Positions 12,078 to 33,174 of a stretch of DNA of 64,000 nucleotides are shown here, piece by piece. This stretch comes from Cloacimonetes bacterium UBA3541. Its GTDB lineage: Bacteria > Cloacimonadota > Cloacimonadia > Cloacimonadales > Cloacimonadaceae. The notes under the pieces were generated by a model that saw only the letters and a list, made by a program, of their open reading frames with translations, was not told the origin of the DNA and ran no database searches. Numbering within the stretch: position 1 is the first letter of the stretch; the number at the start of each line of letters is the position of its first letter. Where the stretch lies: assembly GCA_002376725.1 (NCBI GenBank), contig DFOM01000059.1, positions 25,113 through 89,112 of the forward strand, in the 5' to 3' direction. A program made the position numbers and the translations under genes.

Positions 12078-12088
12078 AAAGGCTGTAA

Positions 12089-12991
12089 ATGAAAATAGAA
12101 GAAAAGATTATAAAACTTAAAAAAGAAAAAAATGCGATTATTTTAGCTCATAACTATCAAATCGTACCAATTCAAGACCTGGCTGATTTTCGGGGTGATT
12201 CCTTACAACTTTCCATTCAAGCAAAAAATAGTCAGGCTCCATTGATTGTTTTTTGCGGTGTCCGCTTTATGGCTGAAACCGCAGCTATCCTCAATCCTGA
12301 AGCAAAGGTCATTCTTCCTGCAGAAGATGCTGGTTGTCCTTTAGCTGATATGATAAATGCTGAACAACTACGACAATTTAAGGCTCTTCATCCTGAAGCC
12401 AAAGTAGTTTGTTATATTAATTCCAGTGCTGAAGTAAAAGCAGAAAGCGATATCTGTTGCACTTCCGCTAACGCAGTTCAGATAATCAATTCTTTCCCAG
12501 AAAATGAAACTATTCTTTTTGTTCCGGATAAAAACTTAGGTAGCTGGGCAGCTAAACAAAGCAGTAGAAATGTTATTGTCTGGAATGGTTATTGTCCTGT
12601 TCATCAATGGGGTTTCACTCGCAGAGCCTATGACCGTTTAAAAAACCAGTATCCAGATTATAAGATGATTGCCCATCCGGAATGTGATGAAGATATTATT
12701 GCGGTTGCAGATGAAGTTCTTTCAACCAGCGGAATGGAAAAATATATTAAAGCTCACGACAAATTGATTATTGCTACCGATTCATCTTTTTCCGATTATA
12801 TGCAACATCTCTATCCAGAGAAAAAGCTCGTTTCTCTAAATACTAGAGCCTACTGTAATAATATGAGAAAAATTACTCTTAAGAATGTACTCAGATCTCT
12901 GGAAGAGGAAAACTACTTAGTACAAGTACCAGCAGAAACTACTAAAAAAGCCTTGTCCGCATTAAACAAAATGCTGGAGATATCTCACTGA
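12089..12991 (+). CDS. nadA: Quinolinate synthase
   Basis: ILAHNYQIVPIQDLADFRGDSLQLS, VFCGVRFMAETA and the length (300 aa) are typical of NadA. Confidence 0.9.
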   Translation: MKIEEKIIKLKKEKNAIILAHNYQIVPIQDLADFRGDSLQLSIQAKNSQAPLIVFCGVRFMAETAAILNPEAKVILPAEDAGCPLADMINAEQLRQFKALHPEAKVVCYINSSAEVKAESDICCTSANAVQIINSFPENETILFVPDKNLGSWAAKQSSRNVIVWNGYCPVHQWGFTRRAYDRLKNQYPDYKMIAHPECDEDIIAVADEVLSTSGMEKYIKAHDKLIIATDSSFSDYMQHLYPEKKLVSLNTRAYCNNMRKITLKNVLRSLEEENYLVQVPAETTKKALSALNKMLEISH

Positions 12992-13080
12992 AAAATTGCA
13001 CTGCCGTTATCCTTGATGAACAGGGAACTTACATCTATCAAGATAGAGAAGCTCAAGCTATATCTAATGCTGCTATCTGT

Positions 13081-13617
13081 TTGACAAATACGGCTTTAAG
13101 TCTTTTTGCTGACTGCCCTCCTCAACAAGTTTTAGACCTAGGAACAGGTTGTGGTATTATTGCTATCTCTCTAGCAATGGCAAGACCTACCTGGAAGATA
13201 ATGGGGCTGGATATACAGCCTCATCTTATAGAGCTGGCAAAATATAATGCTGAACTCTGTAGTCTGAAAACCGAATTTCAAGTTGCCGACCTTTGCACTT
13301 TTACCGCTGAAACTCCCTATACTCTAATTCTCTCCAATCCTCCCTGGCAACCATTAGGAAGAGGGAAAATTAGCCCTTATCCGGCAAAATATATCAGTCG
13401 TTTTGAAGTTATGTGTTCTATGACAGATATTTTATCTTTTCTAAAAAGAAATCTTGCTATTGAAGGAGATGCTTTACTGCTATATCCAGCTTTTAGAATT
13501 CCAGAACTACAAGCTTTGATTTCCAAGAGTTCACTTGACATAATGGACCTCATTGAGTGTGCTGGTTTTAGGAATCACTTTATTTGCCATATTCATTATA
13601 AAGGACACAAAAAATGA
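13081..13617 (+). CDS. Class I SAM-dependent methyltransferase with NPPW motif (TrmN6/YfiC-like); true start may lie upstream
   Basis: VLDLGTGCGIIAISLA (motif I) and LILSNPPWQP (motif IV). The frame is open back to 12946 but has no canonical start before TTG 13081. Confidence 0.7.
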   Translation: MTNTALSLFADCPPQQVLDLGTGCGIIAISLAMARPTWKIMGLDIQPHLIELAKYNAELCSLKTEFQVADLCTFTAETPYTLILSNPPWQPLGRGKISPYPAKYISRFEVMCSMTDILSFLKRNLAIEGDALLLYPAFRIPELQALISKSSLDIMDLIECAGFRNHFICHIHYKGHKK

Positions 13618-14462
13618 ACCGGAGCTTTTTCTTGATCCTCGTCTTAATAACTCTTGTCTTAATAGGTTGGAGTTATGTTCATTATCAATATTTAGAAAGT
13701 AGAGAATTTCGCTTGAATCATCTCTCTGAAATACCTATCTTTGTTTATATGGACGATCTTAACCATCTGGAACAATTAGCTAGAGAGCTTTTAGAGACCA
13801 TACCTGAAATTGATTCTTTATTCTTGGAATCTGGACTGCAAGCTGCTCAGGAAATGCTTTCTAACTATCCAGAGCTGGGAATTGAACCAAACACTTTAAC
13901 TGAATACCAATTTCCCAATATTTTGTCTATAACCTTCAAGCCCGAGCTTTCTTCTTTTTCTGCTCGAGAGTTGACATTGCAGTTTTTCCACGATAATAAT
14001 GTTCCTTCCAAAGATATAGATGACCAGGGTCCAGCCTGGGCTTTAGCTAAAAAGGAATTAGATTTTTTGAATTCTCGCTGGAGTCAAACCACCTTTTTTA
14101 TTGCCATAACTGTATTTTTAATGATTGTTTTTGCCAGACTTTATCTTTATCTACGGGAAGCTATTTATCGTCAGGGTAAATCTCAAACTCTATTAGAGAA
14201 AGTGCGAGCCAGTGAAATAAATCGTTTACATAATGCCCTTCTTTTAATTTTACCCATTCTCATAAATATAGCTCTATATTACATTTTAATTGCCTTAGAC
14301 AAGTTTTCTCCTTTAATTAACTGGAGTTTTTTCCTCGTTCAATTGATAACTCTAGTTGCTGCTGTAATAACGGCTATACTTATCAATAAACTATCTTCCC
14401 CGAGCAAGGAAAGTTCTAAAATAACCGTGGCAGTTCCTCTTGATTCAAGGATTGATGAGTAA
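13614..14462 (+). CDS. ftsX: FtsX-like membrane protein (TM1, periplasmic domain, three C-terminal TMs)
   Basis: Topology plus an ECD-like stretch IPIFVYMDDLNHLEQLARELLETIPEIDSLFLESGLQAAQEML...FPNILSITFKPE. No ftsE is adjacent, so the call is tentative. Confidence 0.45.
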   Translation: MNRSFFLILVLITLVLIGWSYVHYQYLESREFRLNHLSEIPIFVYMDDLNHLEQLARELLETIPEIDSLFLESGLQAAQEMLSNYPELGIEPNTLTEYQFPNILSITFKPELSSFSARELTLQFFHDNNVPSKDIDDQGPAWALAKKELDFLNSRWSQTTFFIAITVFLMIVFARLYLYLREAIYRQGKSQTLLEKVRASEINRLHNALLLILPILINIALYYILIALDKFSPLINWSFFLVQLITLVAAVITAILINKLSSPSKESSKITVAVPLDSRIDE

Positions 14463-17989: not shown

Positions 17990-18064
17990 TCCGGAATAGC
18001 TCAACGGTAGAGCAGGTGGCTGTTAACCACTTGGTTGGGGGTTCGAATCCCTCTTCCGGAGCCA
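17990..18064 (+). tRNA. tRNA-Asn (anticodon GTT)
   Basis: Acceptor stem TCCGGAA/TTCCGGA. Anticodon stem GGTGG/CCACT with loop CTGTTAA. T-loop GGTTCGAATCC. CCA is encoded and followed by a T7 run. Confidence 0.9.
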
Positions 18065-18953: not shown

Positions 18954-20087
18954 ATGCAAATAGAAAAAAATAAATACCAGGATTTTTTGATGCAAGTTAA
19001 AACCAGAATTCAAACATCTCAGGTGCGAGCTATTTTATCTGTAAATGCAGAGTTAATCTATCTTTACTGGGATATTGGACGAATGATAGATAAAAAACAA
19101 AAAGAGGAAGGGTGGGGTGCGGCTGTTATTCCGAATCTATCAAAAGATATTAGAAATGAATTGCCTGAGGTTAAGGGGTTTTCTGAAAGAAATATTGGTA
19201 GAATGATAGCATTTTTCAGGGAATATCCATGCTTAGACCAATTTTTGCCACAGCCTGTGGCAAAATTAGAAGAGAGAAACCATGCTCCAAAAATGCCACA
19301 AGCTGTGGCAAAAATGGCTGCAAAAACTATTATTGAAAAAATATACCCTATTATAACAAACATTCCCTGGGGACACAATATCATCCTTATGGAGAAGGTC
19401 AAGGATATGACTTCTCGCTTATGGTATATGCAAAAAACTATAGAAAATGGCTGGAGTCGTAATATGCTTCGTTCAATGATTGAAGGTAATGCTCATCAGC
19501 GGGAAGGCAAGGCGGTGACCAATTTTGATCTGCGTCTTCCATCTCCACAATCGGATTTAGCAAAACAATCTTTAAAAGACCCTTATATTTTTGATTTTCT
19601 CACTTTAGAGGAACCTTTTAGAGAGCGGGAATTAGAAGTTAGCCTTGTTCAACATTTAGAAAAATTTTTATTGGAATTAGGGCAGGGATTTTCATTTGTA
19701 GGACGGCAATATCATCTCAATGTTGGAGAAAATGATTTTTACATTGATCTTTTATTCTATCATCTTCGTTTAAGGTGTTTTATTGTAATTGAAATAAAAA
19801 AGGGAGAATTTAAGCCTGAATATGCAGGGAAAATTAACTTTTATTGTAATGTGGTTGATGATGTTCTAAAACACGAAACAGACAATCAAACCATAGGTTT
19901 GATCTTATGCCAAGATAAAAATACAGTTGTGGCAGAGTATGCATTGCGTGGATTCAACAAACCAATAGGTGTTTCTAAATATGAATTAACACGTGCATTA
20001 CCAGAGAGCTTAAAATCTTCATTGCCAACAGTAGAAGAAATTGAAGAGGAATTAAAGAATGAAAAAACAAGCAAGAAAGTTGAATGA
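18954..20087 (+). CDS. DUF1016/YhcG-family PD-(D/E)xK nuclease-domain protein (copy 1)
   Basis: N-terminal LIYLYWDIGRMI...GFSERNIGRMIAFF. C-terminal DFYIDLLFYHLRLRCFIVIEIKKGEFKPEYAGKINFY (D...E-x-K core). Confidence 0.85.
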   Translation: MQIEKNKYQDFLMQVKTRIQTSQVRAILSVNAELIYLYWDIGRMIDKKQKEEGWGAAVIPNLSKDIRNELPEVKGFSERNIGRMIAFFREYPCLDQFLPQPVAKLEERNHAPKMPQAVAKMAAKTIIEKIYPIITNIPWGHNIILMEKVKDMTSRLWYMQKTIENGWSRNMLRSMIEGNAHQREGKAVTNFDLRLPSPQSDLAKQSLKDPYIFDFLTLEEPFRERELEVSLVQHLEKFLLELGQGFSFVGRQYHLNVGENDFYIDLLFYHLRLRCFIVIEIKKGEFKPEYAGKINFYCNVVDDVLKHETDNQTIGLILCQDKNTVVAEYALRGFNKPIGVSKYELTRALPESLKSSLPTVEEIEEELKNEKTSKKVE

Positions 20088-20172
20088 GGAATTGCAGGTG
20101 CCTAATATAAAAGCAAAAGAGTTAGAAGAACAAATATCAGAAAATTTAGCAAAGATTATGGGGAAAAAATGA
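20059..20172 (+). CDS. 37-codon ORF translationally coupled to dcm (hypothetical)
   Basis: Below the ORF-track cutoff. It reads MKKQARKLNEELQVPNIKAKELEEQISENLAKIMGKK. Its TGA (20170-20172) overlaps the dcm ATG (20169-20171), and its 5' end overlaps the YhcG stop region. Confidence 0.25.
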   Translation: MKKQARKLNEELQVPNIKAKELEEQISENLAKIMGKK

Positions 20173-21419
20173 AAAATAAATTAACCTTTATTGAATTATT
20201 TGCGGGTGCAGGTGGACTTTCTGAAGGGTTTATAAGAACAGGATTTCAACCAGTGGCATATATTGAAATGGATAAATATTCATGTCTTACACTTAAAACT
20301 CGTATGGCTTACTATTATTTAAGAAGACAGGGTAAAAGTGCTTTATATTCTGGATATATAAAAGGAGATATAACCCGGGAACAATTATATTCTTATATCC
20401 CGCAAAATCTTTTTTGCTCTATTATAAACGAAGAAATAAAGCAGGATACCCTGAGTGAGCTTTTCGGAAAAGTTGAAACAAATATGGAAAAGAACAATAT
20501 AAAACAAATCAATATACTTTTAGGTGGGCCACCGTGTCAGTCTTATTCATTAATCGGGCGGGCTCGCGATCTATACAGGATGGAAAACGATACAAGAAAT
20601 TATCTATATAAATTATATACAGAATTTTTAAAAAAATTTAAGCCAGAGATATTTGTTTTTGAAAATGTTCCAGGCTTAATATCAGCTTATAAAGGTCAAT
20701 TATGGAAGGATATACAGGAATGTTTTTCTAAAGCGGGATATAAAATATCTTACAAAATACTCAATGCTTATGATTTTGGGGTTCTTCAGAATAGAAAGAG
20801 AATTATTGCTATTGGGTGGAGAACAGAATTAAACTTGAAATATCCAGAATTTAATAATGATTATATGGTTAAAAAATATAAAGTTGACGATATTTTATCT
20901 GATTTACCTCCAATAAAAGCAGGTGATAGATTAACAGCAGTTAAGTATGCTGGAAAAGCAACAGAATATCTTACAGAATATGGAATAAGAAATGATGAAG
21001 ATATTCTTACCCTTCATATAGCCCGCAGGCATAATAAACAGGACACAATGATTTATGAATTTTATATTAAAAGCTGGTTTGAGAAAAAGGAGCGCCCTGA
21101 ATATGACCAACTTCCAGAATATCTTAAAACACACAGAAACAGGACTTCATTTAAAGACCGCTTTAAAATTGTAGCACCTGACCTTCCATATTCTCAAACT
21201 GTTGTTTCACATCTTGGGAAAGATGGGCATTATTTCATACATCCTGATATCAATCAGTTAAGGTCAATCTCACCAAGAGAGGCGGCAAGGTTACAGTCAT
21301 TTCCTGATAATTTTTATTTTGAAGGGTCAATGACATCGGTATTCAGGCAAATCGGGAATGCCGTTCCCCCACTGATGGCTGAAAAAATAGCTTTAAAGAT
21401 CAGGGAGATGATAGGATGA
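20169..21419 (+). CDS. dcm: DNA (cytosine-5)-methyltransferase
   Basis: All diagnostic motifs are present: FAGAGGLSEGF (I), LLGGPPCQSYS (IV), FVFENVPGL (VI), QNRKRIIAIG (VIII), RQIGNAVPP (X). Confidence 0.95.
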   Translation: MKNKLTFIELFAGAGGLSEGFIRTGFQPVAYIEMDKYSCLTLKTRMAYYYLRRQGKSALYSGYIKGDITREQLYSYIPQNLFCSIINEEIKQDTLSELFGKVETNMEKNNIKQINILLGGPPCQSYSLIGRARDLYRMENDTRNYLYKLYTEFLKKFKPEIFVFENVPGLISAYKGQLWKDIQECFSKAGYKISYKILNAYDFGVLQNRKRIIAIGWRTELNLKYPEFNNDYMVKKYKVDDILSDLPPIKAGDRLTAVKYAGKATEYLTEYGIRNDEDILTLHIARRHNKQDTMIYEFYIKSWFEKKERPEYDQLPEYLKTHRNRTSFKDRFKIVAPDLPYSQTVVSHLGKDGHYFIHPDINQLRSISPREAARLQSFPDNFYFEGSMTSVFRQIGNAVPPLMAEKIALKIREMIG

Positions 21420-23509
21420 AAAAAGATCTAATATTTAAGCCCCGCGCAAGATTAATTCTTCAACTAGGAGACCAACTCATTAAAAATGAAAGTATTGCAT
21501 TTCTTGAACTCGTAAAAAATGCTTATGATGCAGATGCAACCAGAGTTAGTATTGTAATGGAAAAAGTTGATGACCCAGAGAATGGGAAAATAATTATAGA
21601 AGATGACGGATGTGGAATGACACCTGAAATTATAACAAATGTCTGGATGGAACCAGGAAGTGATTTTAAGGAAAAAATGTTCAGGGAAAACATCAGAACG
21701 CCAAAATTCAAAAGACTGCCACTCGGTGAGAAAGGGATAGGAAGATTTGCTGTTCATAAGTTAGGAAATCTAATTGAGGTTATAACCAGAGCTGAAAATA
21801 ATCCTGAGGTTGTTCTTTCTATAGACTGGAGTCTATTTAATAAATCTGATTACCTTGAAAACATTGGTATCAAGATGATTGAAAGAGAACCTGTTTATTT
21901 TAAAAACAAAACAGGCACAAGAATAAAAATAAAATTAAAAACTGTATTTTCAAGGGGTAGTGTAAGAACCATTTATAGATCTCTTAACTCATTCTGTACA
22001 CCGTTTAGTGATTCTCAACAATTTAAGATTGATTTCAAGATTGACAGGAAAGAATGGATTGAGGGACTCCTTTCCTGGGATGAGATAAAAAATTACTCTT
22101 TATTTAATTTTCTTTGTGAACTGAAAGGAGAAAAAATAATAAAATTCAGGTATGAGTTCACTCCATGGCCTGCAATGACAAAATTAAATGGAAGAATTGT
22201 TGATGAAAATAATGAATATATTAAGAAACAATTAATAATAACTGACAGTAAAGGCAATACAATTAATCTTGATAATTTTAAAATAGGACATATTAGATTT
22301 GAAGGTTTCATATTTGATAGAGATACCCGAATTCTTTCTCTTGGCGTTCATGATAAAAAGGGATTGAAAGAATATCTGGATATGAATGGAGGAGTTAAAG
22401 TATTCCGCGATGGGATAAGGATTTATGATTATGGTGAACCCGATAATGATTGGCTAAACCTTGATAGAAGAAGGGTAAATATTCCAGCAAAAAGAATAAG
22501 TAATAATATTATAATTTCTGCAGTTTATCTTGATAGAGAAAAAAGCATGGATTTAAGAGAAAAAACAAACAGAGAAGGTTTTATTGAAAATGAAGCATAC
22601 AATGAATTAAAAAAATCTTTGATTTATTGTCTGGAGAGAGTAGAAGAGTTACGATATGAAGATAAAAATAAAATAAGAACAAATTATGGTCTGGAAAACA
22701 AGAAAGAACCGGTTGTTTCCACTATAAAAGAATTAAAAACAGTGGTTGAAAGTAAAATAAAAGAAGAAACTGTCAAAAGAGAAATCAATAAACTCCTTGA
22801 TAGAATAGAAGGCGATTATGTGCAAATGAAAGAAGTCCTTCTTAAAAGTGCAGGGGCAGGTCTTACATTAAGTGTGGTTATCCACGAGATTGAGAAAATA
22901 ATTGATGAATTAGAAAAAGTTGTAAAATATGAAAAATCTTCTGAGAAAATTATTAACCTTGTTAAACATCTGGCAGACCTTATAGAAGGCTATACTCTCA
23001 TAATAAGAAAAACAGAAACTAAAAAATGGGATTTAAAGCAATTAATAAATCAAGCAATATTCAATATGGAATATCGCTTTAAAGTGCATAATATTGAAAT
23101 AAAAAAAGATTATGAGAATAAAACAGATAAATTTGAAGTTAATTGTGCAAGAAATCTTGTATTAAATTCTCTTATGAATATAATGGACAACTCAATCTGG
23201 TGGATGGAGTATTCAAAAATTCAACATAAGAAAATTTTCATAACTATTTCTGAAAATATAGAGAAGAGTATAACAATAGTTATAGCAGACAATGGACCGG
23301 GATTAACACTTTCCACTGAAGAAATAATAAAACCATTTGTATCTGCAAAACCTGATGGAATGGGTCTTGGATTGCATATCGTGGATGAAGTTATGAAGGC
23401 TCATAAAGGATTACTTTTATTTCCTCAACCAGATGAGTTTGATATACCAGAGGAATTTGAAAAAGGTGCCATTGTTGCACTTGCATTTCAAAAGGAGGTT
23501 GTAAAATGA
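21416..23509 (+). CDS. Cytoplasmic double-Bergerat ATPase: N-terminal MORC/MutL-like GHKL domain plus C-terminal histidine-kinase core (H, N, G1, F, G2 boxes)
   Basis: N-terminus: FLELVKNAYDADATRV, IIIEDDGCGMT, GEKGIGRFAVHKLG. C-terminus: LSVVIHEIEKII (H-box-like), LMNIMDNSIWW (N), IVIADNGPGL (G1), IIKPFVSAK (F), GMGLGLHIV (G2). No TM segments. ATGA overlaps at both ends. Confidence 0.75.
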   Translation: MKKDLIFKPRARLILQLGDQLIKNESIAFLELVKNAYDADATRVSIVMEKVDDPENGKIIIEDDGCGMTPEIITNVWMEPGSDFKEKMFRENIRTPKFKRLPLGEKGIGRFAVHKLGNLIEVITRAENNPEVVLSIDWSLFNKSDYLENIGIKMIEREPVYFKNKTGTRIKIKLKTVFSRGSVRTIYRSLNSFCTPFSDSQQFKIDFKIDRKEWIEGLLSWDEIKNYSLFNFLCELKGEKIIKFRYEFTPWPAMTKLNGRIVDENNEYIKKQLIITDSKGNTINLDNFKIGHIRFEGFIFDRDTRILSLGVHDKKGLKEYLDMNGGVKVFRDGIRIYDYGEPDNDWLNLDRRRVNIPAKRISNNIIISAVYLDREKSMDLREKTNREGFIENEAYNELKKSLIYCLERVEELRYEDKNKIRTNYGLENKKEPVVSTIKELKTVVESKIKEETVKREINKLLDRIEGDYVQMKEVLLKSAGAGLTLSVVIHEIEKIIDELEKVVKYEKSSEKIINLVKHLADLIEGYTLIIRKTETKKWDLKQLINQAIFNMEYRFKVHNIEIKKDYENKTDKFEVNCARNLVLNSLMNIMDNSIWWMEYSKIQHKKIFITISENIEKSITIVIADNGPGLTLSTEEIIKPFVSAKPDGMGLGLHIVDEVMKAHKGLLLFPQPDEFDIPEEFEKGAIVALAFQKEVVK

Positions 23510-24792
23510 GTTTACCAGAATATGGGAGGGTTGTTATTATAGATGATAATATAAAAGAAGTTGAAGCGTTGATTAAAGTATTATCTAAACATAGAACATC
23601 CATAACTTATTTTACTGGGGCTAATAATGAATTACCGGACACTCCATTTCCTGATGTAAGAATTGTTTTTCTTGATGTTGTTCTTGAAGGGCTTACAGGA
23701 AAAGATACAAAGACAATTGTGTCCACCCTGATTGGGATTCTTGGGAAAATTGTCGATAAAAACAATGGACCATTTGTTATAGTTTTATGGACAAAGCATC
23801 CTGAACATGTAAAGGGTCTTAAAAAAGCCCTTAAAACAGAAAAATATAAATATATTCTTATTGACCTTGAAAAAAAAGATTTTTTTGATCAGAATGGAGG
23901 TTTCAAGCTCGATTCTTATGATTCTCTTAGAAATAGATTAAATGAAAAAATTGCTGGGATTGATATTTTTGATATATTCATCATATGGGAAAATATTATG
24001 AATAATTCAGCAGGTATAACAGTTAATGATTTTTCACAACTGATTAAGTTTAATGATAACTGGAATAATGATATGAAAAATATTTTTTATAAAATGGCTG
24101 AAGCTTGGGCTGGTAAAACTCTTAAGGAACAAAATACACAGAAAATTTTAAAAAATGCCTTATTCACTTTTAATGGGATTTTTAATGATATTTTTGAAGG
24201 TTTGATACAGAATGAAAAATACTCAGCTTATCAAGGTACTTTTTCTTCTAACAACATAAATGAAAAAAACAAAGGCAGAATCAATATAAAATTGTTGCTA
24301 GATTTCAGCGATCTGGAAAAGTTTTATCCGGGAGATGTTTACAGAATAAATAAAAATGCAAAGAATAGTTCTGAACTACTGAAGGATATTTTGGATATTA
24401 ATAAGATTAATGATGAAAAATTTTTTAAAATAAAAAAGAAATCAATACAGGTATTTGCAGAAGTGACACCTTTATGTGATTTTCTACAGGAAAAAATAAA
24501 ACTATACAGGGTAATAGAAGGATTCATTATTCCAGAAAAATATAAAGATGAACAAAACATTGATCATTATGTAAAAATAAAAAAAGCCGAATTTATTTAT
24601 AAAACACCAGTTTTTACGTATAAAAATGAAATATATAGATTAATTCTGGACTTTAAATATTTTTCTTCTAAAACAAAAGATGAACTTAAAAACTTCTCCC
24701 CAATCTTCAGGTTGAGAAAAGAACTATTAAATGATATACAGATAAAACTTTCATCGCATATTAACAGAACAGGAATATTATTTATTGATTAA
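23506..24792 (+). CDS. Receiver (REC)-like N-terminal domain fused to an unassigned ~290-aa C-terminal domain
   Basis: RVVIIDDNIKE (acidic pair after beta1), VRIVFLDVVLEG (candidate phospho-acceptor Asp), FVIVLWTKH (beta4 Thr), YILIDLEKK (candidate Lys). I recognise no motif in the remainder. Confidence 0.6.
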   Translation: MSLPEYGRVVIIDDNIKEVEALIKVLSKHRTSITYFTGANNELPDTPFPDVRIVFLDVVLEGLTGKDTKTIVSTLIGILGKIVDKNNGPFVIVLWTKHPEHVKGLKKALKTEKYKYILIDLEKKDFFDQNGGFKLDSYDSLRNRLNEKIAGIDIFDIFIIWENIMNNSAGITVNDFSQLIKFNDNWNNDMKNIFYKMAEAWAGKTLKEQNTQKILKNALFTFNGIFNDIFEGLIQNEKYSAYQGTFSSNNINEKNKGRINIKLLLDFSDLEKFYPGDVYRINKNAKNSSELLKDILDINKINDEKFFKIKKKSIQVFAEVTPLCDFLQEKIKLYRVIEGFIIPEKYKDEQNIDHYVKIKKAEFIYKTPVFTYKNEIYRLILDFKYFSSKTKDELKNFSPIFRLRKELLNDIQIKLSSHINRTGILFID

Positions 24793-25513
24793 TATGGTAA
24801 GAATACAACCCAACATTGTCAAATGGTATCGGATAAATGGACGTGATTTTCCGTGGAGACATACAAAAGACCCTTACAAAATAATGATTGCTGAATTTAT
24901 GCTTCATAGAACAAAAGCAGAACAGGTGGTACCGGTATATTCTAAATTTATAGAAAAATACCCTTGCGTTAAATCTCTTTTCATGGCAAAAGGAAATGAT
25001 ATTAAAAAATTTACTGCTCATCTTGGATTACATTGGAGAAGCAGGCATTTTATTGAATCCGTCAGATATATCATAAAAAAGTTTGATGGGAAATTCCCTG
25101 ATGATTATGATGAACTAAGAAAGATACCTGGAATTGGAGAATATATTGCAGGGGCAATAATGACAGTATCTTTTAATAAACCTGCTCCTGTGGTTGATAG
25201 CAACATAGCCAGATTTATAAATAGATATTACGGATTGAATCTTGATGGAGAACTTAGAAGAAAAAGAGAAATTATAAGAATTGCTTATGAACTTTTTAAA
25301 TACAAAAATCCAGGGTTATTTCTCTTTGCTATTATAGATTTTACAGCAGTTATCTGCAAACCACGAATACCTTTATGTCAGAATTGTCCCCTGGAAAAAG
25401 AATGTGAAAATACGGAGATTACACTATGTAAGAATAAGATCACCAGGCCAAATCAGCAGCAAAAAAAGCAGGAAGGTAAAAAATATCAGAAATTGGAGAT
25501 GGATAGTGAATAA
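24785..25513 (+). CDS. HhH-GPD DNA glycosylase with Fe-S cluster loop, MutY/EndoIII/Mig-like, lacking the MutY C-terminal domain
   Basis: DFPWRHTKDPYKIMIAEFMLHRTKAEQV, HhH LRKIPGIGEYIAGAIM, catalytic-Asp region VVDSNIARF, cluster CKPRIPLCQNCPLEKEC. Only 242 aa. 8-nt overlap with the upstream gene. Confidence 0.85.
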   Translation: MINMVRIQPNIVKWYRINGRDFPWRHTKDPYKIMIAEFMLHRTKAEQVVPVYSKFIEKYPCVKSLFMAKGNDIKKFTAHLGLHWRSRHFIESVRYIIKKFDGKFPDDYDELRKIPGIGEYIAGAIMTVSFNKPAPVVDSNIARFINRYYGLNLDGELRRKREIIRIAYELFKYKNPGLFLFAIIDFTAVICKPRIPLCQNCPLEKECENTEITLCKNKITRPNQQQKKQEGKKYQKLEMDSE

Positions 25514-25645
25514 GAACAAGACAAATCCGTGGATACTAAGAAAAATTTTTGCAATATGTCAGATTTAAGCTGGACGACGGTCTTTAAAAAGAGTAACACA
25601 CAATATAAAGTCATCACCGAAGAAAAAAGCAGAGATAAATAATTT

Positions 25646-26350
25646 ATGGGTAAAGAAAAGAAATATCCAAAGGCAATTATAAACTGGCCTGAAGATGAAA
25701 GACCACGGGAACGTCTTTTGAAATTAGGTGCTGAAAATCTTTCTAATACAGAACTTTTAGCAATTATTTTAAGAGTCGGCTCAAATGGTAAAAGTGCTAT
25801 TGATATGGCAAGGGAATTGATGAATGAATATCAAACTTTTAGAAATATTGACTCTAAGAGTTTTGCCGAACTTAAAAGAAAAGGCTTAGGTATTGCTAAA
25901 ATTGCTCAAATAAAAGCAGCTATAGAAATTGGCAAAAGATTTCTTAATGACAAAAGTTTGACTAAAGTCAAGGTTGAAACCAGCAAGGATATAGTTGATT
26001 ATTTTAAGCCTTCCTTGAGGGATATGAAAAAAGAAATTTTTAAAGCAGTTCTGCTTGACGGAAAAAATAAAATAATTAAAGAAGTAACTATATCAGAAGG
26101 AACTCTTACAAAAAGCATTGTCCATCCGAGAGAGGTTATAAAAGAAGCAGTTATAGAATCTTCAGCGGCTTTGGTACTTATTCATAACCACCCAAGCGGT
26201 GAGCCTGAACCAAGTCAAGATGATATAGAAATAACTAATCGTATAATCTCTGCCTGTGACCTTGTGGGTATAAAAGTTTTAGACCATATTATCATTGGCG
26301 ATGACAACTATTTTAGTTTTTTCAATGAAGGACTGATAAAGGAGGAGTAA
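25646..26350 (+). CDS. radC: RadC-family JAB/MPN domain protein
   Basis: N-terminal ERPRERLLKLGAENLSNTELLAIILRVG and JAMM motif LVLIHNHPSGEPEPSQDD. Confidence 0.92.
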   Translation: MGKEKKYPKAIINWPEDERPRERLLKLGAENLSNTELLAIILRVGSNGKSAIDMARELMNEYQTFRNIDSKSFAELKRKGLGIAKIAQIKAAIEIGKRFLNDKSLTKVKVETSKDIVDYFKPSLRDMKKEIFKAVLLDGKNKIIKEVTISEGTLTKSIVHPREVIKEAVIESSAALVLIHNHPSGEPEPSQDDIEITNRIISACDLVGIKVLDHIIIGDDNYFSFFNEGLIKEE

Positions 26351-26352
26351 TA

Positions 26353-27249
26353 ATGCCCAAAACCCTTTTTATTGAGGCTGCATACCAAGTGTTAAAGGAA
26401 AAAGGAGAACCATTAAGTGCAGAAGAAATAACTAAAATTGCCCTTGATAAAGGATTAATGAAGACTACTGGCAAAACTCCAGTGGCAACTATGGGAGCAA
26501 GAATTTATATGGATATGAAAACAAAGGGCAATAATTCTTTATTCACAAAAGTTAAACGAGGTGAGTTTGGTTTGAAAGAATGGCAAGAATTTGCTCAAAA
26601 GCAGGAAGTCTATGGATATAGAAAAGGTAGTTTTAAAGATGCAGCATATCAAGTTTTAAAATTAGAAAATAAGCCTTTAAGCATTCAAAAAATTACCGAA
26701 ATTGCTATGAAGAGAAATCTGTTTACATCCTCTGGCAAAACTCCCGAGGCAACAATGGGAGCACAATTATATACAGATATCAAAAGATTGGGGGACCAAT
26801 CCCCTTTTGTTCAATTGGGCAAAAACAAATTTGGATTACGAGAGTGGGATATTAGCGTTCTTAAAAATGAAATTAAAATTCAGGAAAAAGAAACAATAAT
26901 TTCTGAGAAAAAGCGCTCTATTGTTGGAGACCCGATTAACTTTGAAGGATTGATTTATGGACCTTTAAATGAAAATGGAGTTATATTTTTATTTAGCAAG
27001 ATTCACGATAAGTTGGAAATAAATATTGAAGCAATTCAGGCAACATTTCCTGACGCTAAAGGTCGGAGGAAAACTACTAAAGGCTGGGAGGATGTTTGGA
27101 TTGAATTTGAATATAAGAGTTCACATTTTAAGATTCATAAACACGATCCAAGTGAATGTGACCTTATTGTTTGCTGGGAACATGATTGGAAAGAATGTCC
27201 TATTGATGTTATTGAGTTAAAATCCGTGATACAAAAATTAAAGGGGTAA
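26353..27249 (+). CDS. Tandem HARE-HTH domains fused to a small PD-(D/E)xK-like C-terminal domain
   Basis: Two paralogous wHTH units: EAAYQVLKEKGEPLSAEEITKIALDKGLMKTTGKTPVATMGARIYMDMK...GEFGLKEW and DAAYQVLKLENKPLSIQKITEIAMKRNLFTSSGKTPEATMGAQLYTDIK...NKFGLREW. The C-terminus reads TFPDAKG...VWIEFEYKSSHFKIHKHDPSECDLIVCWEHDW. Confidence 0.7.
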   Translation: MPKTLFIEAAYQVLKEKGEPLSAEEITKIALDKGLMKTTGKTPVATMGARIYMDMKTKGNNSLFTKVKRGEFGLKEWQEFAQKQEVYGYRKGSFKDAAYQVLKLENKPLSIQKITEIAMKRNLFTSSGKTPEATMGAQLYTDIKRLGDQSPFVQLGKNKFGLREWDISVLKNEIKIQEKETIISEKKRSIVGDPINFEGLIYGPLNENGVIFLFSKIHDKLEINIEAIQATFPDAKGRRKTTKGWEDVWIEFEYKSSHFKIHKHDPSECDLIVCWEHDWKECPIDVIELKSVIQKLKG

Positions 27250-27252
27250 CCT

Positions 27253-29142
27253 ATGCCTGAAAAAGAATATAAACCAACTGAGGAACTTGAAGCAAAAGAA
27301 GGGTATGTAAAGGATTTTTTAACTAACCGATTAATCCGCTCTACCCCGGAGGAACAAGTTAGGCAAATTATGTTGATGAGATTGGTACAAGAATACGAAT
27401 ATCCTATAGAATGTATAAAAACAGAGTTTGAAATACAAAAAGGAAGTAAAAGAATTGGTCCCGCAGATATTGTAGTTTTTAAAGATGCAAAAAGCAAAGA
27501 CCAGGAGAATATTTGGATTATTGTAGAAACCAAACGCAAAGAACGTTCTGACGGTATTGAACAATTAAAAAGTTATTTGGCTCCCTGCCTCAACGCTAAG
27601 TTTGGGATATGGTTTAATGGTAATAATATTGCCTATATTGAAGTAGTTAGAAACAGGGATAAATTTGAATTCAAAGATGTTCTTAGAATACCTAAATGTG
27701 GGGAAACTACAATTCATCTTCCAGAAAAGAAAGATTTAAAACCAGCACCAGAATTAAAAAGCATTTTTGAAACATGTCATAATTATATTTATGCAAATGA
27801 AGGATTGCTTAAGGAAAAAGTTTTTAATGAAGTTTTAAAACTTATTTTTATAAAAATGGTTGATGAAAAAAGAAGTTCTGCAAAATGTGAATTTGGAATA
27901 ACATCAGAAGAGGAAGAAGAAATAAAAGAGGGTAAGTCAAGTGTTTTTACAGAAAGAATTATAAATCTTTTTAAAGAAGTAAAGTCAATGTATAGTGATG
28001 TCTTTGAACAGAATGAAAGGATAAATTTAAAGCCAATTACTCTTGCCTTTGTTGTAAGCCAACTTCAAGAATATAGCCTTATAGAAACAAAAGCAGATGT
28101 TAAAGGGACTGCCTTTCAGACATTTGTCTCTGCTCACCAAAGGGGAGAGCGAGGTGAATTCTTTACTCCACACCCCATAGTTGAATTAGCTGTTGAAATG
28201 CTTGACCCAAAAGATAATGAAAAATTTATTGACCCTGCATGTGGCTCAGGAGGTTTTCTTGTTAATGGGATGAACTATGTTAAGGAAAAATTTATCAAGG
28301 AAAGACCTGACAAAAAATCTAAAGCAAACGAAATCCTCAAAGAATATACTCATTTTCATATATCAGGTATAGATATTAATCCAGATTTATCAAAGGTCGC
28401 CAAGATGCATATGATTTTATACGATGATGGGCATACAGGAATATTTTCTGCAAACAGTCTTTCATCATTTGAAGAACTAATGGACTTGGCGTCAAGGGCA
28501 CGAGTTCCACTTTCTCTTACTCCTTCGCCTAATGCTTTTGATGTTTTGATGACAAATCCTCCTTTTGGAAGTAAAGGCAAGGTAACAGATAAAAGAATCT
28601 TAAAGCAGTTTGAACTTGGTTATAAATGGAGACAAGACAAAACCACTGGAAAATGGATAAAAACAGATGAACTACAAAATGGACAAGTCCCAGATATTTT
28701 GTTCATTGAAAGGTGTCTGCAACTTCTCAAAGATGGTGGTAGGATGGCAATCGTCTTACCAGATGGTAATCTAAATAATTCATCTTTAGGTTATGTTAGG
28801 GAATTTATACAGCAGAATGCAAGGATTTTAGCAGTTGTTTCAATGCCTGTTGGAACTTTTATGCAAGCAGGAGTAAACCCCAAGACAAGCGTTTTATTCT
28901 TACAAAAACTCAATGAAGAAAAATTAAATGAACTCAAAAAAGCTAATTATCCAATTTTTATGGCAGTAGTTGAAAAGATTGGCTATGACTTAAATTCAAA
29001 AACACCAAAAGTTATGTATAAGAAAGATGAAAAAGGAGAGGTTCTAAAAGATGATGATGGCGAGCCAATTATAGATACAGATATTCCAAAAATTATTGAG
29101 GCATTTAAAGACTTTAAAAGAAAATATCAATTAGGATTTTAA
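27253..29142 (+). CDS. N6-adenine DNA methyltransferase (HsdM/gamma class) with N-terminal HSDR_N-type PD-(D/E)xK module; BcgI-A-like
   Basis: N-terminus: PEEQVRQIMLMRLVQEYEYP...IGPADIVVF...IWIIVETKRK. MTase motifs: EFFTPHPIVELAVEMLDP (X), FIDPACGSGGFLV (I), VLMTNPPFGSKG (IV). Confidence 0.85.
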   Translation: MPEKEYKPTEELEAKEGYVKDFLTNRLIRSTPEEQVRQIMLMRLVQEYEYPIECIKTEFEIQKGSKRIGPADIVVFKDAKSKDQENIWIIVETKRKERSDGIEQLKSYLAPCLNAKFGIWFNGNNIAYIEVVRNRDKFEFKDVLRIPKCGETTIHLPEKKDLKPAPELKSIFETCHNYIYANEGLLKEKVFNEVLKLIFIKMVDEKRSSAKCEFGITSEEEEEIKEGKSSVFTERIINLFKEVKSMYSDVFEQNERINLKPITLAFVVSQLQEYSLIETKADVKGTAFQTFVSAHQRGERGEFFTPHPIVELAVEMLDPKDNEKFIDPACGSGGFLVNGMNYVKEKFIKERPDKKSKANEILKEYTHFHISGIDINPDLSKVAKMHMILYDDGHTGIFSANSLSSFEELMDLASRARVPLSLTPSPNAFDVLMTNPPFGSKGKVTDKRILKQFELGYKWRQDKTTGKWIKTDELQNGQVPDILFIERCLQLLKDGGRMAIVLPDGNLNNSSLGYVREFIQQNARILAVVSMPVGTFMQAGVNPKTSVLFLQKLNEEKLNELKKANYPIFMAVVEKIGYDLNSKTPKVMYKKDEKGEVLKDDDGEPIIDTDIPKIIEAFKDFKRKYQLGF

Positions 29143-29143
29143 G

Positions 29144-30250
29144 ATGGAGAATAAAAAAATAACCACTAGAAATTATACAAGCCTGCTTGATAGAATTGCA
29201 GAAATTTTAGTAGAGGGAAGAACAAAGGTAGTGCGAGAAATAAACAGGGCTCAAGTATTAACTTACTGGGAGATTGGAAGAGAAATTGTTGAGTTTGAAC
29301 AGAAAGGTAAGGCAAGAGCAAAATACGGAAAAGAACTTATTGCAAAATTAGCAAAAGATATGACACAAAAATTTGGTAGAGGATTTTCGGAGAGAAACTT
29401 GTGGAATATGAGAGCTTTTTATCTCAATTTTCCAATTCCGCAGACACTGTCTGCAGAATTTTTAGAAGGTAAAAAATCCGAGACACTGTCTAGTAAATCT
29501 TTAATTAGTCAGACTTCGTCTGACCAATTTGAACCTATGTTATCCTGGTCTCATTACTGCGAATTGCTAAAAGTAGAAGAACTTCTTGCCCGTTCTTTTT
29601 ATGAACAAGAAGCAATCCAGAATAACTGGTCTGTGAGAGAATTAAAAAGGCAAATTAACTCAATGCTTTTTGAAAGAATTGCTTTAAGTAAGGATACAAA
29701 TGCAGTAATGGAAATGGCTAAAAAAGGACAGATTGTAGAAAAACCAGAAGATGCAATTAAAGATCCATACATCCTTGAGTTTCTTAATCTTAAAGAAGAG
29801 ACATCTTATACTGAATCTCAACTTGAGCAAGCACTCATTGATAAACTCCAATATTTCTTATTAGAACTTGGTAAAGGTTTTACTTTTGTTGCCCGTCAGA
29901 AAAGAATTACGATTGCGAATCGTCATTATTATGTGGATTTGGTTTTCTATAATCGGCTGTTAAAGTGTTTTGTTTTAATTGATTTGAAAACAGACGAACT
30001 TGACCATTCAGATATTGGTCAGATGAATTTCTACCTGAACTATTTCAAAGAGAATGAAAAACAAGCAGATGAAAACGATCCAATTGGGCTTATACTCTGT
30101 GCAATGAAAGACGATATTTTTGCAAAGTATGTTTTAGGTGGATTAAACAATAAAGTTTTCGCTTCAAAATATAAATTAGCACTACCATCAGAAGAAGAGC
30201 TATGCCTCAAGCTTAAATCAATACCAAAAATATTGGAGGAAAAGAAATGA
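29144..30250 (+). CDS. DUF1016/YhcG-family PD-(D/E)xK nuclease-domain protein (copy 2), inserted between the M and S genes
   Basis: VLTYWEIGREIVEFEQ...GFSERNLWNMRAFY and HYYVDLVFYNRLLKCFVLIDLKTDELDHSDIGQMNFY. Same architecture as 18954-20087. Confidence 0.85.
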   Translation: MENKKITTRNYTSLLDRIAEILVEGRTKVVREINRAQVLTYWEIGREIVEFEQKGKARAKYGKELIAKLAKDMTQKFGRGFSERNLWNMRAFYLNFPIPQTLSAEFLEGKKSETLSSKSLISQTSSDQFEPMLSWSHYCELLKVEELLARSFYEQEAIQNNWSVRELKRQINSMLFERIALSKDTNAVMEMAKKGQIVEKPEDAIKDPYILEFLNLKEETSYTESQLEQALIDKLQYFLLELGKGFTFVARQKRITIANRHYYVDLVFYNRLLKCFVLIDLKTDELDHSDIGQMNFYLNYFKENEKQADENDPIGLILCAMKDDIFAKYVLGGLNNKVFASKYKLALPSEEELCLKLKSIPKILEEKK

Positions 30251-31623
30251 TTATTTCAGAAATAAGATATAATCAGGCAATTAAAAGGTTGAGATTTGAT
30301 GCTGAGTTTTATAACCCTTTCAAACTTGAGTCGATGCGAACATTAAATGCAATTACTAGTAATACAATAGGGGAGAAATTTAATTCAATTAGAGATGTAT
30401 TTGATCCAAATAAATATTACCAAAAGAATGAAACTGCTAATATTGTTGAACTTGCTGATATATCCAATAAATTTGTGTCAAACAAACGGACATGTAAAAT
30501 TTACGAAGTCGGTAGCCAGAAGAAAAAATTTAACAAGAATGACGTGTTAATATCAAGACTACGCTCTTACCTTGAAGAAATTTTTTATGCTATAGATTTT
30601 CCAGAAAATAAAATAAACTTGTGTTCAACCGAATTTATTGTTTTACGAAGGAAGGAAAAAGAAAATGTCACACCTGAGTTTCTGTATATACTGCTTCAAA
30701 CATCATTTATACAGGAGATTTTAAAATGGAGTCAAGATGGAACAAATCACCCACGATTTGACGAAGATTACTTATTAGACTTACCATTTCCTATACCTTC
30801 TATCGTTTTCCAGCAAAAAATAGAATTAATTGTTAAAGAAGCATATAAAAAGCGAAAAGAAGCAGATGAAAAATATAAACAGGCAGAAGTTTTGTTGAAT
30901 AAAGCATTAGGGATTGAAAAATTAGAATTAAAAGATGAAAAGATTTTTGAAACAGGATTTGATGAAGTTGAAAGTGTATTGCGTTTTGATGCAGAGCATT
31001 ATCAACCAAAATATAAGGAAGTGAGAAAATTTATCGGCACGGCAGGATATGAAGTTAGAAAACTAAGAGATGCTGTTGAAATCTCCGATAATAAGATAAG
31101 TCCTTTATCTAAACCCACTGAATTATTTAGTTATATTGAACTTGCTAACATAAATTCCTCCACTGGTGAAATAGAAGAAGTCAATCAAATAAAAGGATAT
31201 AATGCACCAAGCCGGGCAAGGATGCTTGTGAGAAAAGGGGATGTATTAGTTTCTTCGCTTCTGGGATCTCTTGATAATATTGGTTTGGTTCCCGAAAAAT
31301 TAGATGGTTCAATAGCAAGCACTGGATTTTTTGTGATAAGGTCTAAATTTTTCTTGCCTGAATTTTTATTTTTACTATTCAAGTCAAACTTGATGAGATT
31401 GCAACTTGAAGAAAAAACAGCAGGAGCAATCATGAGTGCAGTCCCAAAAAATACTTTTGGCGATTTGCTTGTTCCTATGATTCCTGAAGAAACACAAAAA
31501 CAAATCTCAAACCTTATCAGACAATCATTTTCTCTTCGCAAAGAATCAAAAGAACTTTTAGAAAAGGCAAAAAAAGAAGTTGAAGAATTTATTGAGAAAA
31601 ATACTAATTACAACCGCCCCTGA
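30247..31623 (+). CDS. hsdS: Restriction-modification specificity (S) subunit with two target-recognition halves
   Basis: Two half-repeats, each beginning LRFDAEFYNPFK / LRFDAEHYQPKYK, followed by variable TRD sequence and helical spacers (KEADEKYKQAEVLLNKAL, KESKELLEKAKKEVEEFI). Confidence 0.88.
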   Translation: MIISEIRYNQAIKRLRFDAEFYNPFKLESMRTLNAITSNTIGEKFNSIRDVFDPNKYYQKNETANIVELADISNKFVSNKRTCKIYEVGSQKKKFNKNDVLISRLRSYLEEIFYAIDFPENKINLCSTEFIVLRRKEKENVTPEFLYILLQTSFIQEILKWSQDGTNHPRFDEDYLLDLPFPIPSIVFQQKIELIVKEAYKKRKEADEKYKQAEVLLNKALGIEKLELKDEKIFETGFDEVESVLRFDAEHYQPKYKEVRKFIGTAGYEVRKLRDAVEISDNKISPLSKPTELFSYIELANINSSTGEIEEVNQIKGYNAPSRARMLVRKGDVLVSSLLGSLDNIGLVPEKLDGSIASTGFFVIRSKFFLPEFLFLLFKSNLMRLQLEEKTAGAIMSAVPKNTFGDLLVPMIPEETQKQISNLIRQSFSLRKESKELLEKAKKEVEEFIEKNTNYNRP

Positions 31624-31966
31624 ACAGCGATTTTTTAGAGAAGGGATAATACATTAACATATCATATTCATCGTCATTAAGCGATATAACATACAAACTA
31701 TTAATAAGGTTAATAAAAGCTACAAAAGTCTTAGAACGAGATTATAGATATTTTCTGGTAATAGTTAACATAGAAGAACAAGATATCCTAGTCTCGTAAA
31801 GCCAATAAGCTTTGTTTTCTTCATAAGATAGCAAAAACAATAAATTTTATATCACACCATACTTTAAAATAAAATGCTTCTTCAAAGATTCATAGATGAA
31901 GACATCTATGACCCTTTTTGGAAAGTGTCACATATATTGGTAGATAACGAACTACTGGTTCAGTTA

Positions 31967-32280
31967 ATGAAAGCTTCTCCGAAGCTTGGAACGATGAGGA
32001 CATCGTTCCACCACTGGTTTTCTCTCTTGCAAAGCCGTCAGGTTTTGGTCTTCTTAAAAGGTGGATATAACTATAAAATCTGTCTTACACATCACTTATA
32101 AATGAAAGCTCCTCCGGAGCTTGAAACGATGAGGACATCGTTCCACCATTAGTTCCCATCTTGCAAAGCCGTCAGGTTTTGGTCTTCTTAAAAGGTGGAT
32201 ATAACTATAAAATCTATCTTACACATCACTTATAAATGAAAGCTCCTGCAGAGCTTGAAACGATGAGGACATCGTTTCAC
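31967..32280. repeat. 134-135-bp direct repeat, 2.3 copies, each starting with two adjacent hairpins
   Basis: Units start at 31967, 32102 and 32236, each with ATGAAAGCT. Hairpin 1 is AAGCTTC-tcc-GAAGCTT. Hairpin 2 is GGAACGATG-agga-CATCGTTCC. The last, truncated copy abuts the stop codon of the minus-strand SagB-type gene. Confidence 0.9.
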
Positions 32281-33174
32281 CTATTTTTTCCCTACCGCAG
32301 CAATGTATATTACGAACTCTTCTTTCCCATCTATGCCCAAACAATGGTTCATTGCTTCATCCACAAAAGCTCCTATCATACAGGCACCAGCTTGAATAGC
32401 TTCAGCGGCAAGATGGACATTTTGTCCTATATGTCCAACATCAACATAGAGATAGCGATAAGCTCTTTGCTGATATCTCCAGCTGGCACGATAAGGAACG
32501 GCAGTAAAGATAAAAGTTACAGCATCCTCTATAACCATTGATTGTTCCAGGCAAGCTTGATAAATTTCCTGGGTTATTTCAGATGTGGTATTGATTTTAA
32601 TCAGAGTATGTTCCAGTGGATGATAATAATAAAGTCCTGGTTGCACACTTTCAACTTTATTGATGAGCAGGTAACATTCCATTGGATGACGGCTTCCTGC
32701 AGAAGGGACATTGCGTCTTGTAAACTCATTATATATAGTGCTATGGTATTCTTTCACCCAGCAGGTTGCCCATAACATAAAGGAAAGTTCCTGAAGAAAA
32801 AGAGGTTTATTAGAGTATTTTCTCAGACTTTTTCTCTGATTAATAGCTTGAGCAAGTGTAATTTCTGGCATAGTTAAACTATCTGGAGCTGGAAGTACAA
32901 TTTTTTCTCCGGTTCTTGCTTTTATTGCAGGAGGATGAGGCAAACCCTTTTGCTGGTCACTGATATCTTCATAGAGATAGCTGGTTAATCGGACAAAATC
33001 CGGTCCGATAGTTTTTGCTCTATCTCTTTCTTGTAAAATCTGTTGCAATGTTTCGGACAAACTTTCTTCCATCTCTTGATATTCTTCTTCTGTAAGAGCA
33101 AGTTCTTTCATTATCTCTTTTTTAGTAGATCCGTGGACTTTACCATAGAGAAAGCTGAAGCTTTTCAAATCCAT
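32281..33174 (-). CDS. SagB/ThcOx-type nitroreductase-family dehydrogenase
   Basis: RKSLRKYSNKPL, RRNVPSAGSRHPMECYLL, PGLYYYHPLEHTL and C-terminal GACMIGAFVDEAMN. Confidence 0.8.
   Translation of the reverse strand: MDLKSFSFLYGKVHGSTKKEIMKELALTEEEYQEMEESLSETLQQILQERDRAKTIGPDFVRLTSYLYEDISDQQKGLPHPPAIKARTGEKIVLPAPDSLTMPEITLAQAINQRKSLRKYSNKPLFLQELSFMLWATCWVKEYHSTIYNEFTRRNVPSAGSRHPMECYLLINKVESVQPGLYYYHPLEHTLIKINTTSEITQEIYQACLEQSMVIEDAVTFIFTAVPYRASWRYQQRAYRYLYVDVGHIGQNVHLAAEAIQAGACMIGAFVDEAMNHCLGIDGKEEFVIYIAAVGKK

Follow-up and report, generated by a model that had tools for sequence, protein, structure and literature searches.

The DNA considered here, referred to below as the window, is a whole stretch of 64,000 nucleotides (nt) from Cloacimonetes bacterium UBA3541 (GenBank assembly GCA_002376725.1, contig DFOM01000059.1, positions 25,113 to 89,112 of the forward strand). 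It contains a cassette of four plus-strand open reading frames (ORFs) that encode a Dcm-type C5 cytosine DNA methyltransferase, a kinase-like protein of 697 amino acids (aa), a 428-aa protein with a receiver (REC) domain, and a glycosylase with a Mig/MutY core. The best explanation of this arrangement is that the cassette belongs to a widespread and horizontally mobile class of two-component-like modules linked to 5-methylcytosine (m5C) methylases. On sequence comparison, the kinase/REC pair is filed as a divergent and very large branch of a class published in 2021, and it is not regarded as new in kind. The cassette may act as an ATP- and phosphorelay-gated restriction-like module, in which Dcm would serve for self-protection and the Mig-type glycosylase for T:G repair; this reading is given slightly less than an even chance. 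An earlier note on the same DNA read the anatomy well and its observation was largely right, while its claim of an undescribed combination was wrong.

Anatomy of the cassette

The genes of the cassette follow each other closely. ATGA overlaps are present at the Dcm/kinase junction (21416-21419) and at the kinase/REC junction (23506-23509), as the earlier note had read them. For the third junction, the note gave an 8-nt overlap at 24785-24792, which requires a TTG start at 24785 for the glycosylase gene. An alternative ATG lies at 24794, one base past the TAA stop of the REC gene at 24790-24792. Judged from the sequence, this ATG is the more likely start, and the junction is tightly coupled with either one. 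The note had also counted five coupled ORFs, the additional one being a 37-aa ORF at 20059-20172. Tight coupling holds for the other four genes. The 37-aa ORF had zero family matches in profile scans, and a tblastn search of 85 related loci gave no significant counterpart upstream of Dcm. It is therefore unsupported as a gene, and the cassette is counted as four genes, not five.

The two outer genes are well described by known families, in agreement with the earlier reading. The methylase matches PF00145 (E 3.6e-64) and TIGR00675 (192 bits), and its translation shows all five motifs I, IV, VI, VIII and X (FAGAGG, PPCQ, ENVPG, QNRKR, GNAVPP). Its full length is matched by the MTase_II and DrmMII-type models of PADLOC. 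The last gene encodes a glycosylase with matches to Pfam PF00730 (HhH-GPD) and PF00633. It matches PDB 1kea (Mig.MthI) over its full length with E 7e-40, and MutY cores with E 1e-43. A C-x6-C-x2-C-x5-C cluster and the sequence VVDSN are present in the translation, and the C-terminal domain of MutY is absent. The features of the Mig type, namely an HhH-GPD core, a catalytic Asp, a [4Fe-4S] loop and linkage to an m5C methylase, are thus all found. Because MutY catalytic cores score equally well, the T:G specificity of the glycosylase is inferred from its size and context. The PADLOC model PDLC03398, named “Type II nicking endonuclease”, covers it over the full length as well.

The kinase-like protein carries two ATPase domains in Pfam, HATPase_c_3 at residues 27-156 and HATPase_c at residues 586-688. 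In the AlphaFold2 (AF2) model, which has a predicted local distance difference test score (pLDDT) of 75.6, residues 1-175 form a MORC/paraMORC-like GHKL ATPase, followed by an S5-like middle domain (~176-390), long helices that include the DHp (~391-532), and the CA domain of a histidine kinase (533-697). Foldseek matched the N-terminal half to MORC2, SMCHD1 and Hsp90/TRAP1 over about 460-500 columns, and the C-terminal half to the DHp+CA cores of HK853 and ZraS over ~255 columns. No membrane helices are present in the AF2 secondary structure. The GHKL Bergerat fold, intact N, G1 and G2 motifs and the S5 fold after them are those of the MORC and paraMORC proteins. The matches thus support a fusion in which a MORC/Hsp90-like GHKL+S5 module precedes a class-I histidine-kinase core, which is the combination of a MORC/MutL-like GHKL domain and a kinase core that the earlier note had recognised.

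Both ATP sites of this protein are strongly conserved. Among 78 relatives, Glu31, Asn35, Asp63-x-Gly-x-Gly and Gly104-Glu-Lys-Gly-x-Gly are invariant in the N-terminal site, and the same is true of Asn588, Asn592, Asp625-x-Gly-x-Gly and Gly-x-Gly-x-Gly in the C-terminal site. The candidate phospho-accepting histidine, which the note had placed in the H-box, is His490 (78/78), and the next residue is Glu (Glu491) in 74 of the 78.

The partner of the kinase is a protein of three parts, a REC domain (1-135), a helical linker with a WEN motif (136-245) and a C-terminal domain (246-428). It had no Pfam, NCBIfam, PADLOC or PDB sequence match, and Foldseek searches with the full AF2 model (pLDDT 86.9) returned receiver domains exclusively. 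The fold has the (beta-alpha)5 arrangement with the acidic pair Asp13/Asp14, a phospho-accepting Asp, Thr/Ser and Lys, so the receiver-like nature proposed in the note holds together with all catalytic residues. Conservation was followed in 123 diverse relatives taken from clusters at 50% identity or less. Asp57, the Asp of the FLD motif that the note had picked as the candidate acceptor, and Lys123 are present in 123/123; Asp13 and Ser/Thr96 are each kept in 115/123, and Trp95 is invariant. Phosphotransfer is likely, since both ATP sites of the kinase, His490, Asp57, Lys123 and Ser/Thr96 are conserved. The predicted direction is from His490 to Asp57.

The C-terminal domain of about 185 residues has the signature PGNVY ... 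E-x-[TS]-P-x-C-D-x-x-Q-x-K ... H-x-x-R-x-G. Its Cys324-Asp325 dyad is invariant, with each residue found in 123/123 relatives, and Asn260, Gly276, Pro322, Gln328, Lys330, Arg335, His418, Arg421 and Gly423 are nearly so. A profile of the domain gave no match among PDB sequences. When 1.84 billion representatives were searched exhaustively with this profile, 1494 clusters at 50% identity were obtained. Among the 150 matches listed, the domain is C-terminal behind ~240+ residues in every full-length one. Other architectures with the domain were also sought in this search, and the full-length matches among the best 150 share one layout. The domain is also shared by a 340-aa “response regulator” on Campylobacter conjugative plasmids, in which the preceding REC is more canonical.

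A divergent branch of a published class

A purely computational study by Bellieny-Rabelo, Pretorius and Moleleki (2021, Genome Biol Evol; PMC8011034) has already described the cassette type. The kinases reported there are soluble and consist of HATPase_c_3, a new DHp domain called HEF_HK (PF19191), and HATPase_c. The authors collected 644 regions with an association to restriction-modification (R-M), in which linkage to a REC-like protein, Response_reg_2 (PF19192), reached 91.6% (PMC8011034). A C5-methylase lies upstream, Vsr is mostly directly downstream, and HNH_2 is the commonest nearby nuclease. Descent from the paraMORCs was proposed, and a regulatory role was speculated upon (PMC8011034). 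No experimental follow-up of this work, and no report on GHKL/kinase/receiver defence systems, was found in the literature.

The window cassette agrees with this description in anatomy and in context. HATPase_c_3, a DHp with His-Glu and HATPase_c stand in a soluble kinase, next to a REC-like partner without any other known domain, and a C5-methylase lies upstream. A gene for T:G repair directly follows the REC gene, and HNH_2 is the commonest nuclease among the relatives. The combination that the earlier note considered undescribed was therefore already in print, with Vsr in the place where the window has Mig. The replacement of Vsr by a Mig-type glycosylase is a minor variant. In contrast to the published account, the C-terminal Cys-Asp domain is undescribed in PMC8011034, and the branch of the window extends to archaea and to many phyla unnamed there.

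The Pfam models of the published class do not reach this branch. PF19191 gave no match to the window kinase even at E up to 10, and in precomputed Pfam data it is absent from all 120 listed kinase relatives. The model is in the library, since it matches a protein of A. baumannii DETAB-P16 weakly (18.8 bits against a cut-off of 24.1). This same protein can be aligned with the window kinase over the entire length (E 1e-32), and for this reason the pair is filed as a divergent branch of the class. For PF19192, whose presence in the library copy is unconfirmed, no match was obtained for the window protein, 68 locus relatives or 108 representatives at 50% identity. Neither model had any match among these 176 REC-type relatives, and precomputed Pfam data showed no domain on the full-length REC-type matches of the large database search.

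In the A. baumannii locus, the HEF_HK-like gene has ribonucleotide reductase genes as neighbours, and the 646-aa partner next to it shows no relation to the window REC protein. Its record, NZ_CP077849.1, has the label “plasmid”, but at 3.66 Mb it is evidently a chromosome.

The distribution of the cassette was followed in 79 related loci, one genome per species, from many bacterial phyla and archaea. The REC gene directly follows the kinase gene in 68 of the 71 loci with room downstream. In nearly all of these 68 loci, the two genes overlap by 4 nt, as in the window, or are separated by 1-6 nt, and this coupling is kept across phyla. Dcm stands directly before the kinase in 54 of the 73 loci with room upstream and elsewhere in the locus in 11 more. 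The earlier note had suggested looking at neighbourhood conservation, and the two middle genes thus co-occur almost always, mostly together with Dcm. Vsr is found in 38 loci, where it takes the slot of the window glycosylase, and a Mig-type glycosylase is found in 5. The gene after REC encodes an HNH_2 endonuclease in 10 loci and a NOV_C (PD-(D/E)xK) protein in 3; most cassettes are without a recognisable nuclease gene. HTH_3 genes lie near the cassette in 10 loci. Kinase-like matches numbered more than 7000 in the scored search, with 55-76% identity of the kinases across bacteria and archaea. Relatives are also carried on conjugative plasmids, where they adjoin toxin-antitoxin genes, and hardly any are found in phage genomes.

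The kinase and the REC protein co-evolve as a unit, and Dcm is only loosely coupled to them. Pairwise distances of the kinase and the REC protein correlate with r = 0.84 (partial 0.82), as against r = 0.29 for the kinase and Dcm. It was also asked whether the kinase or the REC protein diverges in step with the target-recognition region of the methylase, and neither does (partial r = 0.06 to 0.21). This independence makes a classical cognate restriction enzyme unlikely. The mean pairwise distance is 0.73 for the REC protein and 0.54 for the kinase. Faster change of this kind would fit a pattern that is often seen for effectors in conflict systems.

Two further loci show how the layout can vary. 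On plasmid p1 of Burkholderia sp. IDO3 (4607-13965), a type I M subunit, a kinase-like protein, a short 228-aa “response regulator”, a hydrolase of the metallo-beta-lactamase (MBL) fold and a DEAD/DEAH helicase are found together. This variant shows that the same MORC-kinase can pair with other receivers and effectors. A metagenome-assembled genome (MAG) of the archaeon Cenarchaeum (~7044-13503) has two tandem kinase/REC pairs, one of whose REC-type ORFs is 923 aa long, and no Dcm within 10 kb.

What the module may do

A restriction-like mode of action can be sketched from these components. Dcm would methylate the host DNA, and the Mig-type glycosylase would fix the T:G mismatches that come from deamination of 5-methylcytosine, which would be the job of Vsr in most relatives. 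The GHKL+S5 module might, speculatively, work as an ATP-driven DNA clamp or sensor. Upon a trigger, the kinase core would phosphorylate His490, and the phosphoryl group would pass to Asp57 of the partner. The C-terminal Cys-Asp domain of the phosphorylated partner could then be switched on as an effector whose target is unmodified or foreign DNA, or else the infected cell, which is again speculative. The kinase and the REC protein co-evolve while Dcm is swapped, so any sequence specificity probably comes from Dcm or from the modification status of the DNA. Its part would be analogous to that of Mod in type III systems. Gene linkage, conserved coupling, co-evolution, the active sites, the folds, the homology of the GHKL domain to restriction enzymes, carriage on an island and on plasmids, the faster divergence of the REC protein, and the published R-M association all argue for this restriction-like reading. 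DNA sensing, effector activity and a defence phenotype stand in it as speculation. It is possible, if somewhat unlikely, that the cassette represents a new type of restriction or defence, in which the MORC-like clamp would read the modification, a phosphorelay would lead to a hitherto undescribed Cys-Asp enzymatic domain that destroys or disables unmodified DNA, and an exchangeable Dcm would lend specificity.

Several known systems share parts of this design. The paraMORC GHKL ATPases of R-M operons were described by Iyer, Abhiman and Aravind (2008; PMC2292703). They likewise have GHKL+S5 and share their operons with cytosine methylases, Vsr, and HNH or PD-(D/E)xK nucleases, and their distribution is sporadic and laterally mobile. 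The five paraMORC families differ in having RE-fold, TIR or unknown C-terminal extensions, or superfamily II (SF-II) helicase partners; the word “receiver” is absent from that paper, and “histidine kinase” occurs solely in the spelled-out form of GHKL (PMC2292703). A link to real restriction enzymes comes from residues 16-173 of the window kinase. These match NF050001, the family of the type II enzymes BbrUII/HgiDII, with E 4e-23 and 82 bits against a 550-bit cut-off, and the GHKL N-terminus also matches two REase_II models of PADLOC. The matches tie the GHKL domain to such enzymes. The homology is limited to the N-terminal GHKL, since 165 of the 659 profile positions (the first 165) match, and beyond this domain the window protein has a histidine-kinase core in place of the C-terminal region of that family. 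BbrUII/HgiDII enzymes are likewise paired with m5C methylases.

Detocs follows the same logic, in which a soluble kinase passes phosphate to an effector protein with a REC domain. In this system, reportedly the work of Rousset et al. in 2023, a kinase (DtcA), a buffer receiver (DtcB) and a REC-effector (DtcC) are said to form a phosphorelay-gated abortive defence. Both cassettes are found in defence islands. In contrast to Detocs, the window cassette has no buffer receiver, its sensor is a MORC-like ATPase, its putative effector domain matches no known family, and it includes a methylase and a mismatch-repair gene as integral components. No Detocs model matched the kinase-like protein in the PADLOC scan, in which the REC protein was left without any family. 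The methylase and the glycosylase resemble M.MthTI and Mig.MthI of Methanothermobacter plasmid pFV1, where a short HhH-GPD [4Fe-4S] glycosylase, also without the MutY C-terminal domain, stands beside an m5C methylase. The partner of M.MthTI/Mig.MthI is a classical restriction enzyme. In the window, no recognisable restriction endonuclease domain was found in the two middle proteins by Pfam, NCBIfam or PADLOC, and the scans thereby agree with the earlier note, which had seen no PD-(D/E)xK, HNH, GIY-YIG or PLD motif in either. DISARM was considered for the match of Dcm to the DrmMII model and was rejected, as the proteins scanned (18954-31623) had no match to DrmA, DrmB or DrmC.

A number of observations weigh against a restriction-like function. 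The cassette is not a named system in PADLOC v2, which holds no model for the kinase/REC pair. The Cys-Asp dyad, invariant as it is, is no classic nuclease signature. Comparison by hhalign of the C-terminal domain with Vsr, HNH_2, NOV_C and DUF4420 showed no relation, no tie to any nuclease or toxin family was detectable, and the full-length model led Foldseek to receivers alone; nothing was found that would mark the effector as a nuclease. Dcm is missing within 10 kb in 8 of 73 loci. The nuclease genes (HNH_2 or NOV_C) present in 13 loci indicate that the pair itself could be something other than a nuclease. Finally, the C-terminal domain does not follow the target-recognition region of the methylase (partial r = 0.06).

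The absence of a nuclease signature in either protein would also suit a regulatory two-component system. Here, the pair would sense an intracellular cue, such as the nucleotide pool or the state of the DNA, and control the linked methylase or R-M genes, with the C-terminal domain as a new DNA- or protein-binding output. The intact hallmarks of kinase and receiver are consistent with such a role, as are the controller-like HTH_3 genes near 10 loci, and it is what the authors of the 2021 study had in mind (PMC8011034). However, profile scans detected no helix-turn-helix (HTH) or other known DNA-binding output domain, and most cassettes are without a separate restriction gene to regulate. The invariant Cys-Asp with the conserved Asn, Gln, Lys, His and Arg resembles an active site more than a binding surface, and the cross-phylum mobility of the cassette, together with the level of kinase identity, is a better fit for a self-contained selfish or defence module. 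A purely regulatory role is thus regarded as unlikely. It is also conceivable that the cassette is an addiction or abortive-infection module. The MORC-like domain would sense the loss of methylation or interference by a phage, and a toxic, Cys-dependent enzyme in the REC protein, not a nuclease, would kill or arrest the cell and so stabilise the mobile element. Relatives beside toxin-antitoxin genes on conjugative plasmids, the tRNA-adjacent island of the window and the thiol chemistry suggested by the invariant Cys-Asp point in this direction, and Detocs is reportedly a precedent for phosphorelay-gated abortive defence. The C-terminal domain is nevertheless unlike any known toxin in profile and hhalign comparison, and the idea overlaps heavily with the restriction-like reading, from which it differs solely in the target of the effector. 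As a separate explanation, it is given a small chance.

Methylation and repair could also be the whole purpose of the cassette. The GHKL+S5 part, an architecture common to MutL and MORC, would then stand in for MutL and stimulate Vsr or Mig in very-short-patch repair of the T:G mismatches that Dcm gives rise to, and the kinase and REC part would tune this activity. A functional interaction of MutL and Vsr in E. coli is cited in PMC2292703. Vsr or Mig is found within a few genes in 43 of the 79 loci, often straight after the REC gene, but neither is nearby in the other 36, and the HNH_2/NOV_C nucleases in 13 loci indicate cleavage over repair. The kinase core, the receiver and the large conserved extra domain are left unexplained, and ordinary Dcm-Vsr pairs work without proteins of the kinase/REC type. 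This explanation has a slim chance.

The island and the meaning of the cassette

The cassette lies within a low-GC island (~18.1-32 kb in the GC profile) that starts after a tRNA-Asn gene, where further genes for modification and candidates for defence are also located. The positions of the features are collected in Table 1.

Table 1. Features of the cassette and of its island, in positions of the window
Feature	Position	Strand	Basis or remark
tRNA-Asn, left edge of low-GC island	17990..18064	+	GC profile
YhcG/DUF1016 PD-(D/E)xK protein, island context	18954..20087	+	PF06250, PF17761, PADLOC PDC-S02
37-aa ORF, unsupported as gene	20059..20172	+	overlaps YhcG 3' end by 29 nt
C5 cytosine DNA methyltransferase (Dcm-type)	20169..21419	+	416 aa; PF00145, TIGR00675, motifs
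Soluble kinase-like protein	21416..23509	+	697 aa; HATPase_c_3 + HATPase_c, AF2, Foldseek
His490 codon, candidate phospho-accepting histidine (H-box VIHEIEK)	22883..22885	+	translation
REC-effector protein	23506..24792	+	428 aa; AF2, Foldseek
Asp57 codon, candidate REC phospho-acceptor (FLD)	23674..23676	+	translation
Cys324-Asp325 codons, C-terminal domain of REC protein	24475..24480	+	translation
Mig/MutY-core HhH-GPD [4Fe-4S] glycosylase	24785..25513	+	242 aa; PF00730, PF00633, PDB 1kea
RadC (JAB)	25646..26350	+	
HARE-HTH protein	26353..27249	+	298 aa; two HARE-HTH repeats
N6-adenine methylase with HSDR_N_2 N-terminus, MAD2-like	27253..29142	+	below MAD2 cut-off
Second YhcG	29144..30250	+	
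HsdS-like specificity subunit	30247..31623	+	matches PADLOC mad5 model

Two paralogous YhcG/DUF1016 genes, a PADLOC candidate type (PDC-S02), are present in the island. One lies directly upstream of Dcm, and the other lies between the N6-methylase and the HsdS-like gene; only one of the 79 related loci was found to carry a YhcG homologue. The RadC and HARE-HTH pair stands between the cassette and the N6-methylase, and the HARE-HTH protein has, besides its two repeats, a C-terminal half without family assignment. The MAD2-like methylase raised the possibility of a MADS system, which was rejected, as MAD2- and MAD5-like matches are the only ones among the proteins scanned (18954-31623) and the MAD2 score, 512 bits, falls short of the 720-bit cut-off. 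No other MADS components and no HsdR were seen. At the right edge of the island, in the intergenic space between the HsdS-like gene and a nitroreductase gene, a 134-nt tandem repeat occurs in 2.3 copies with 92% matches (31966-32281). It contains hairpin-forming segments and has no Rfam match.

The counts of kinase-like matches and of C-terminal domain clusters show that this type of cassette is common in bacteria, in archaea and on conjugative plasmids. The existing Pfam models, PF19191 and PF19192, overlook this large branch. In annotation, the pair should not carry the label “sensor histidine kinase / response regulator” that is used for ordinary signalling. A restricting activity of the cassette, if it exists, would make it the first R-M-like system under the control of a phosphorelay, and it would also define a new effector domain.

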